49,114 bases of DNA from a virus (IMGVR_UViG_2513237200_000008), one strand, 5' to 3'; numbered from the stretch's first letter, positions 31,282-31,435 are shown. The notes: generated by a model from the letters alone, not told the origin. Program-made: numbers and translations.

Positions 31282-31356
31282 TGGAGCGGGTAGCGGGAAT
31301 CGAACCCGCATCATCAGCTTGGAAGGCTGAGGTAATAGCCATTATACGATACCCGC
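31282..31356 (-). tRNA. glyT: tRNA-Gly (anticodon UCC), glyT-like
   Basis: Cloverleaf with anticodon loop CUUCCAA, T-arm GGTTCGATTCC, 3' CCA; an acceptor-stem difference from the K-12 glyT sequence as I recall it would be compensatory. Confidence 0.85.
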
Positions 31357-31359
31357 ATA

Positions 31360-31435
31360 TGGTGCCGACTACCGGAATCGAACTGGTGACCTACTGATTA
31401 CAAGTCAGTTGCTCTACCTACTGAGCTAAGTCGGC
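31360..31435 (-). tRNA. tRNA-Thr (anticodon UGU)
   Basis: GCCGACT acceptor stem, anticodon loop CUUGUAA, T-arm GTTCGATTCC, 3' CCA. Confidence 0.85.

Follow-up and report, generated by a model that had tools for sequence, protein, structure and literature searches.

The tRNA-Thr–tRNA-Gly pair and its position in the prophage

We investigated two adjacent tRNA genes, tRNA-Thr(UGU) and tRNA-Gly(UCC), in a viral DNA stretch of 49,114 nt (IMGVR_UViG_2513237200_000008; the whole stretch is hereafter called the window). A reading made from the sequence without database searches (the sequence-only reading) had placed these genes 3 nt apart at 31282–31435. Exactly two tRNA genes were called by ARAGORN across the window; both lie on the minus strand with a spacing of 3 nt, and the coordinates matched to the base. 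Both genes fold into the cloverleaf of a bacterial elongator tRNA according to ARAGORN and the Rfam tRNA model RF00005 (gathering score: 29; see Table 1), and the 3′ CCA is gene-encoded in both, which confirms the observation of the pair. Over the 1 kb that surrounds the tRNAs, the sequence is 100% identical to Escherichia coli W and its derivatives, and the RefSeq annotation of NC_017664.1 identifies a complete lambdoid prophage integrated at ttcA, namely the Rac-type prophage Rac*W of E. coli W.

Along the minus strand, the prophage carries replication genes, the NsnABC cargo, hok/sok, and the genes for DUF1367, YbcO, and a DUF1133 protein, followed by the tRNAs and then by two holins, an M15 endolysin, and the terminase, head, and tail genes. 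The tRNAs are therefore encoded on the same strand as the Q-like, holin, endolysin, and structural genes. The DUF1133 protein was assigned as a Q-type late antiterminator: it matched Pfam DUF1133 with 338 bits and Phage_antitermQ with 30 bits (cut-off: 26), and showed weak phmmer similarity to the phage 21 Q structures 6jnx/6p18 (E = 2e-4). Because this protein passes the Phage_antitermQ threshold and resembles phage 21 Q, the placement proposed in the sequence-only reading, downstream of Q, ahead of the lysis genes, and on the late strand, is right, and it agrees with the Pfam matches and the RefSeq map. This is the position of late tRNA arrays in lambdoid phages.

Since tRNA genes are common phage integration sites, the two genes could instead be host chromosomal tRNAs, or an attachment-site remnant, lying between two adjacent elements. 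In line with this, a 2026 preprint reads tRNA hits near prophage small RNAs as integration hot spots (bioRxiv 10.64898/2026.05.13.724894). That reading contrasts with the arrays described here, which are phage-borne genes inside the late region. The Rac*W tRNAs lie approximately 17 kb inside the prophage and are complete, unlike the partial duplicates often seen at a boundary next to the integrase; Q lies upstream and the lysis, terminase, head, and tail genes lie downstream, all on one strand. The integrase (47879–49114), together with the excisionase (integrase and excisionase region: 47662–49114), sits beside ttcA at the far end of the window, and the other prophage boundary is near uspF. 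Furthermore, the corresponding host operon is intact elsewhere in the W chromosome, and induced, sequenced phages such as vB_EcoS-683R6 and phi467 have the same pair. With phage genes continuing on both sides, the pair is phage-borne, as the sequence-only reading had held, and we regard the probability of a host or attachment-site origin at this position as practically negligible.

Table 1. Coordinates of the features around the tRNA pair (positions in the window; all on the minus strand)
Feature	Position	Strand	Evidence and remarks
Q-type late antiterminator gene, 178 aa	31800..32336	-	WP_000640164.1; upstream neighbor of the tRNAs
Candidate PR′ (TTGCAA, 17 nt, TTCAAT)	31764..31792	-	Inferred; read from the sequence
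Intrinsic terminator, candidate tR′ (AACCCGC-CATCGA-GCGGGTT and U-rich tail)	31674..31708	-	RNA fold
Predicted cassette promoter (TTGCGA, 16 nt, TATCAT)	31499..31526	-	Promoter scan, 9/12 matches; start at ~31492-31491
5′ leader hairpin, conserved candidate (GGUUCU/GA/GGGGGA ... UCCCCU/GA/AGAACC)	31439..31491	-	Fold, -20.4 kcal/mol; ends 3 nt before tRNA-Thr
tRNA-Thr(UGU)	31360..31435	-	ARAGORN, tgt; Rfam RF00005, 73.8 bits, E = 2e-14; CCA encoded
tRNA-Gly(UCC)	31282..31356	-	ARAGORN, tcc; Rfam RF00005, 65.6 bits, E = 4e-12; CCA encoded
STnc100/PasD-like small-RNA candidate	30895..31091	-	Rfam RF02076, full-length, 24.4 bits (gathering score: 47), E = 0.002
Holin gene	30137..30529	-	RefSeq; Pfam Phage_holin_8 / Phage_holin_3_7 among the lysis cassette
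Holin gene	29872..30147	-	RefSeq; Pfam Phage_holin_8 / Phage_holin_3_7 among the lysis cassette
M15 endolysin gene	29492..29869	-	RefSeq; Pfam Peptidase_M15_4; lysis cassette spans 29492..30529

Host origin, conservation, and distribution of the pair

The prophage tRNA-Thr is identical at 76 of 76 positions to thrU of both K-12 and strain W, and tRNA-Gly is identical at 73 of 75 positions to glyT of the same strains. The sole difference in tRNA-Gly is the pair 6:67 (positions 6 and 66 of the 75-nt gene), which is U:A in the prophage and C:G in host glyT. The compensatory acceptor-stem change that the sequence-only reading had proposed is thus real (C6:G67 to U6:A67), and no other position distinguishes the two genes; the anticodon stem-loop of tRNA-Gly is identical to that of glyT. 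ThrRS (threonyl-tRNA synthetase) relies on G1:C72, C2:G71, G35, and U36 as identity elements, and GlyRS (glycyl-tRNA synthetase) on U73, G1:C72, C2:G71, G3:C70, C35, and C36. These elements and the anticodons are unaltered in the prophage genes, and 6:67 is not an identity position. In a comparison with L127 (24893–24968), the phage ileX-like tRNA that comes first in the longer arrays described below also showed C6:G67 to U6:A67 in its acceptor stem relative to host ileX, as tRNA-Gly does relative to glyT.

The host operon thrU-tyrU-glyT-thrT-tufB is intact in strain W at 4,436,517–4,436,958 of NC_017664.1. The prophage pair resembles it in the order of Thr before Gly, the anticodons, the identity elements, and the encoded CCA. 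However, the host operon has tyrU and a 116-nt spacer, both missing from the prophage pair, in which the two genes are only 3 nt apart and sit in the late region. Similarity between the two ends at the mature tRNA ends; promoter, leader, spacer, and trailer are unrelated. The best explanation for this pattern is that both genes are of host origin, that is, thrU and glyT copies from which the tyrU between them is missing.

The variation among 124 Thr and 123 Gly copies, a sample biased by a search pattern in which 23 Thr and 17 Gly positions were fixed, mostly preserved the fold. Among the Thr variants found in at least three copies, A9G, U16C, and U20C preserved the cloverleaf, the sole exception being U43C in the anticodon stem (three copies). 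In tRNA-Gly, the 6:67 pair was compensated in 50 copies and a U·G intermediate occurred in 4; a compensated G:C to A:U change at 49:65 was found in 3 copies, and C19U and C26U also reached at least three. The remaining pair-breaking changes in either tRNA were confined to one or two copies each. Additionally, between W and E. coli 042, the tRNAs and the 95 nt upstream of them (249 nt in total, covering promoter, leader, and tRNAs) were 100% identical, as compared with 95.4% for the next upstream segment, 93.2% for the candidate PR′/tR′ block, 93.7% for the Q gene, and 86.8% for the downstream segment. That changes are compensated and pair-breaking variants are rare points to selection for an intact cloverleaf, and this pattern, like the compensated pair from which the sequence-only reading had suggested a functional tRNA-Gly, argues for function.

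The distribution of the pair was examined using a 53-nt junction probe spanning Thr, the 3-nt spacer, and Gly, which cannot seed on the host operon. The fused junction was present in 875 of the 5426 complete E. coli genomes (~16%), with up to five copies per genome, and in these 875 genomes the matches always lay under annotated tRNA-Thr and tRNA-Gly features. An exact-pattern scan also found the pair in Shigella flexneri, E. ruysiae, Citrobacter braakii, and Enterobacter hormaechei, and in at least 120 contigs of IMG/VR; the counts of loci and arrays given here and below refer to the matches listed. Among these, 51 loci carried Thr-Gly alone and approximately 55 carried longer arrays, in which Met(CAU), then Arg(UCU) or Lys(UUU), and then Thr-Gly are directly fused. 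The 'Met' member is identical to host ileX at 70 of 76 positions and is thus an ileZ-type AUA reader; accordingly, the partners of the pair in relatives, ileX-like (AUA) and Arg UCU (AGA) tRNAs, are also readers of rare A-ending codons. The sequence-only reading had likened the locus to the slot of ileZ/argN/argO, and the published maps of Shiga toxin (Stx) phages, in which tRNA genes lie between Q and stx, agree with this (PMC3491183, PMC7946995, PMC7547250). Because ileX-like CAU and Arg(UCU) tRNAs form one array with the pair in many phages, the comparison is more than an analogy.

The slot between Q and the lysis genes is constant while the flanking genes vary. The upstream neighbors in the related loci comprised three unrelated Q families (PF06323, DUF1133/PF06530, and PF03589), a DNA methylase, or ORF6N, and the downstream neighbors comprised three holin families. 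The pair is also optional, as is typical of a moron (an autonomous prophage insert with promoter, gene, and terminator): phage lambda has no tRNA in its Q-to-lysis interval, the junction occurs in only part of the E. coli genomes, and loci sharing one Q type carry either Thr-Gly or Met-Arg-Thr-Gly. Five sequenced elements, vB_EcoS-683R6, the Stx phage phi467, the LT-IIb prophage SerU-LTIIb, JLK-2012, and PhiR47_1, have the same fused pair, already annotated, in the Q-to-lysis interval with 94–98% identity, although they differ from Rac*W in their Q and lysis genes. In phi467, unlike in Rac*W, the pair follows stxAB and lies between stxB and the S gene. SerU-LTIIb has two copies of the pair, one Thr body of which has a UCU anticodon and a D-stem mismatch.

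This distribution bears on whether the tRNAs are neutral passengers or recombination linkers, which fold correctly but bring no benefit; the 154-bp stretch, which many lambdoid phages and the host share almost unchanged, would then persist via constant repair by gene conversion and serve as a crossover point between the Q and lysis modules. The pair coincides precisely with a mosaic boundary and has a wide range of partners on either side, the pair-holin-pair-holin duplication of SerU-LTIIb looks like recombination through repeats, tRNA-Thr is 100% identical to thrU, and lambda does without such tRNAs. Conversely, the phage-specific U6:A67 allele of tRNA-Gly is kept in about half of the copies, which means that host glyT is not simply overwriting the prophage gene; a predicted dedicated promoter and a leader hairpin, described below, are conserved with the tRNAs and would be needless for a passive linker; and the few pair-breaking variants beside compensated changes point to selection on the fold. 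We therefore consider a purely passive role unlikely.

Two further observations concern the arrays themselves. In the longer arrays (e.g., L005, L008, L010, and L011 of IMG/VR, and L133 and L135), a single tRNA scaffold occupies the place ahead of tRNA-Thr, but its anticodon varies (Arg UCU, Lys UUU, Phe AAA, or Leu UAA). The versions with Arg and Lys anticodons match at 66 of 77 positions, an apparent case of anticodon switching within a phage tRNA. In SerU-LTIIb, the locus is duplicated (tRNA pair, holin, tRNA pair, holin), and the Thr gene at 5464–5539 has changed its anticodon from UGU to UCU and is thus called tRNA-Arg; this copy has a G31·U39 wobble and a C11:A24 mismatch in the D-stem.

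Predicted promoters, leader hairpin, and downstream RNA elements

Between the Q-type gene and the tRNAs, we found two blocks of putative transcription signals. The first contains the candidate PR′, which was not called by the promoter scan because position 2 of its −10 hexamer is not A. The initially transcribed region that follows is conserved and contains a −10-like TACGCT, and the intrinsic terminator at the candidate tR′ lies further downstream; RNA folding of 31760–31670 gave −36.4 kcal/mol (z = −3.98), a stability that none of 200 shuffles reached. The block AAACTGCTTCAAT..GGTAYGCTTCGCAAAGCTGTAYCGCGAGGCGA occurs after every DUF1133-type Q in the related loci, even where a gene is inserted after Q, and a terminator is present at the candidate tR′ position in all of these loci. 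Judging from its position, this conserved block is probably the PR′/tR′ pair of the DUF1133-type Q.

The second block is the predicted cassette promoter. The pattern TTGNNN, 16 nt, TAnnnT, 6 to 8 nt, GGTTCY was found in 47 of 52 Thr-first arrays, with a spacer that was always 16 nt long in those 47 although its sequence varied widely. Met-first arrays instead had TTGCAA or TTGCAG, 17 nt, and TATTAT, nine bases before the first tRNA. Because the promoter and leader unit accompanied each of the three Q families and also followed methylase genes, it is part of the tRNA cassette and not of one particular Q. For the same reason, and because a separate promoter/terminator block tracks the DUF1133-type Q, the cassette promoter is unlikely to be PR′ itself. 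In the Stx2a phage Sp5, a separate promoter was mapped between tR′ and the tRNAs by differential RNA sequencing (PMC7547250), which matches the layout predicted for the Rac*W pair. We infer that the Thr-Gly pair probably has its own sigma-70 promoter and does not depend only on Q-dependent read-through. As for the own promoter and terminator typical of a moron, the promoter footprint is present, and the first strong terminator lies 358 nt downstream and may instead belong to an STnc100-like RNA (see below).

The 5′ leader between this promoter and tRNA-Thr could form a hairpin, with a 6-bp stem (GGUUCY/RGAACC), a 2×2 GA/GA internal loop, a G-rich inner stem, and a variable loop of 19–30 nt. 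Of 53 Thr-first arrays, 47 had this hairpin, whereas no Met-first array did; the leader thus distinguishes the two forms. phi467 and copy 1 of SerU-LTIIb have the leader hairpin as Rac*W does. A covariance model found the hairpin at this position only, in the window, E. coli 042, SC418, E. ruysiae, phi467, SerU-LTIIb copy 1, and Citrobacter braakii; 150 kb of the W chromosome, lambda, and the remainder of the prophage gave no match. RNAalifold gave the same consensus structure. The covariation was weak: 88.5% of the cells pair and five pairs show double changes, values that column-shuffled alignments reached in 53 of 500 and 39 of 500 cases, and the covariation term of RNAalifold was only −0.76. 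Accordingly, we present the hairpin as a conserved candidate and do not claim it as a proven RNA structure. It matched no tRNA-like or other Rfam family at E ≤ 1, and the idea that it is a decayed Arg/Lys-like or ileX-like array tRNA was rejected on this ground and because local alignments were no better than those of shuffles.

Downstream of the pair, an STnc100/PasD-like candidate starts approximately 190 nt after tRNA-Gly. It ends with a terminator hairpin (30924–30905) followed by U8, which is the first strong intrinsic terminator after the tRNAs (fold z = −3.64) and possibly marks the 3′ end of the tRNA cassette transcript. STnc100 is a prophage small-RNA family, and STnc100 and PasD small RNAs have been tied to this part of lambdoid prophages (bioRxiv 10.64898/2026.05.13.724894). 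Between this terminator and the holin gene, we also observed two GC-rich hairpin copies (~30768–30873, minus strand), each followed by GGGACAAAGTCC and approximately 70 nt apart, and a terminator-like hairpin at 30570–30555 just before the holin start. Small open reading frames in the gaps of the region (31592–31807 and 31035–31190 on the minus strand, and 30774–31091 on the plus strand) had no Pfam match and low-complexity translations and were treated as non-coding.

These elements raise the question of whether RNA processing or regulation is the main role of the locus. The tRNAs would then act as RNase P (ribonuclease P) cleavage points that cut the late leader, releasing a hairpin-capped leader RNA and the STnc100-like RNA, or that set the 5′ end or stability of the lysis mRNA. 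A conserved hairpin at the predicted 5′ end of the transcript that stops 3 nt before tRNA-Thr, and the STnc100/PasD-like element with its terminator past tRNA-Gly, would fit this idea, and there is a precedent in Stx phages, where short PR′ transcripts are processed into a regulatory small RNA (PMC7547250). However, the exact conservation of anticodons, identity elements, and CCA would be needless for a mere cleavage signal, the longer arrays lack the hairpin, the hairpin covariation is not significant, and the STnc100 match is under the gathering threshold. We judge processing to be a highly improbable main role.

A related but broader idea is that the promoter, the GA/GA hairpin leader, and the two tRNAs form a self-contained mobile cassette that passes between lambdoid phages as a single block and is expressed in lysogens, with the hairpin as a new functional RNA element. 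The hairpin might stabilize the 5′ end, control how the tRNA precursor is processed, or be a small RNA that RNase P sets free and that has targets of its own. We consider this idea fairly unlikely as a whole; if true, the host tRNA pool would be shifted in about one E. coli genome in six.

Codon use and possible roles of the tRNAs

Based on RefSeq coordinates, we compared codon use among 32 late or lysis genes of the prophage, 25 early or cargo genes, and a host set of 84 genes taken from two 50-kb segments of the W chromosome, with the late genes of lambda as a control. Per thousand codons in the host, late, early, and lambda late genes, respectively, ACA occurred 4.9, 12.2, 18.3, and 10.1 times; ACG, 13.8, 22.9, 12.2, and 28.4 times; GGA, 7.3, 15.2, 16.3, and 10.1 times; and GGG, 10.2, 15.0, 9.3, and 16.9 times. 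Relative to the host, ACA and GGA were thus enriched 2.5-fold and 2.1-fold in the late genes, and ACA 3.7-fold in the early genes. ACG, GGA, and ACA ranked second to fourth of the 61 codons by absolute excess in the late genes, and the highest density of ACA and GGA was found in the repressor-like, cro-like, int, ralR, and Q genes. tRNA-Thr(UGU) reads ACA and ACG (and ACU) and tRNA-Gly(UCC) reads GGA and GGG, each being supplied by a single host gene.

ACA and GGA are therefore rare in the host and overused by the phage, with a similar bias in lambda. The idea that phage tRNAs offset differences in codon usage is cited in the phage literature (PMC7946995), and the sequence-only reading had suggested that the pair may supplement codons of late genes or accessory cargo. 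The codon comparison fits such a supply, but the fit is not specific, as lambda shares most of the bias. We rejected the view that the match is particular to the cassette, since the lambda control shows a bias mostly general to lambdoid late genes. As the late genes of lambda share the bias without such tRNAs, extra copies are not required for the lytic cycle of a lambdoid phage. With AUA and AGA enriched as well, any fitness benefit from codon supply would probably be a modest advantage and not a requirement.

Based on these results, we favor, with reasonable though not strong confidence, the explanation that the pair consists of functional, host-derived elongator tRNAs carried as a small accessory transcription unit between Q and the lysis genes. 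The proposed layout on the minus strand would be Q, a PR′-like promoter, a short leader, tR′, a sigma-70 promoter, the 5′ hairpin leader, Thr, 3 nt, and Gly, followed after about 190 nt by the STnc100-like RNA ending in a terminator, and then by the holin gene. In a lysogen, the cassette promoter would make the tRNAs; upon induction, RNA polymerase modified by Q would start at PR′ and read through tR′, which would give a second round of tRNA transcription within the late transcript. The mature tRNAs would be freed by host RNase P and 3′ exonucleases and, as all known identity elements are intact, would be charged by ThrRS and GlyRS. The net effect would be a doubled gene dose of two single-copy host tRNA genes whose codons are used at 1.5–3.7 times the host level. 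Because an own promoter is probable, the pair may alter the tRNA pool of lysogens and not just that of induced cells.

Several points weigh against this explanation. The perfect identity of tRNA-Thr to thrU could stem from recent capture or gene conversion rather than from selection, and the bias of the variation sample noted above applies to the argument from conservation. The late genes of lambda show much of the same codon bias without phage tRNAs; likewise, AUA and AGA are enriched 2.8-fold and 3.1-fold in the prophage, yet it lacks tRNAs for these codons. Finally, the activity of the cassette promoter is deduced from conservation only.

Phage tRNA arrays are increasingly read as counter-defense, and the tRNA-Lys of phage T5 reportedly acts against the PARIS system. 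Prophage tRNAs could similarly replace tRNAs that are cleaved or inactivated by tRNA-targeting toxins or defense nucleases. It would suit such a role that the neighboring slot in relatives holds a scaffold with varying anticodons, including Lys UUU, and that further conflict genes are present in the prophage (NsnABC, hok/sok, RalR/RalA, and an Acb1-family annotation). A nuclease-resistant anti-defense tRNA would, however, differ from the host tRNA in the recognized part, usually the anticodon loop. Neither gene does: tRNA-Thr is identical to that of the host and the anticodon stem-loop of tRNA-Gly is that of glyT, so neither would escape an anticodon nuclease by its sequence, and only dosage would change. 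In addition, we identified no E. coli toxin aimed at these two isoacceptors. We consider counter-defense very unlikely for this pair and retain the accessory elongator tRNAs as the preferred explanation.

A close known counterpart is ileZ-argN-argO of Stx2 phages (933W and Sp5), compared through published descriptions, which, like the Thr-Gly pair, lies on the late strand between Q, with PR′/tR′ (candidates in Rac*W), and the late or lysis genes, and both sets decode A-ending codons that are rare in E. coli. Rac*W differs in having Thr UGU and Gly UCC isoacceptors, no toxin gene, and no Ile or Arg members. The two genes themselves were reported in 2011: the E. coli W genome paper places thrX and 'tyrX' in a variable region of Rac*W and gives K-12 tRNAs as their homologs (Archer et al. 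2011, PMC3032704), and these are the same two genes of the same prophage. That paper names the second gene tyrX, a tyrU homolog, whereas ARAGORN, Rfam, RefSeq, and our alignment identify it as Gly(UCC), a glyT homolog. Because the genes were reported then and are annotated in RefSeq by the Prokaryotic Genome Annotation Pipeline, the pair is already known; the finding is real, rightly interpreted, and ordinary. It brings little surprise, tRNA genes downstream of Q being a textbook trait of Stx-type lambdoid phages. What is added here is the prevalence figure, the predicted cassette promoter and candidate hairpin, the codon match expressed in numbers, which the lambda control qualifies, and the correction of the tyrX name. 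For models of codon-dependent expression of acquired genes, and for tRNA counts in E. coli, the pair should be treated as extra, presumably functional copies of thrU and glyT, not as integration scars.

The prophage also carries other accessory loci. The three-gene cargo NsnA/NsnB/NsnC (34477–37680, minus strand; GC content: 41%) matched PADLOC models with 410, 405, and 299 bits and is a candidate anti-phage defense system. Type I toxin-antitoxin loci were found at 33691–34014 (hok/sok; sok, 112.8 bits) and 47187–47558 (RalR/RalA; RalA, 219 bits), and an Acb1-family annotation is present in the prophage as well.

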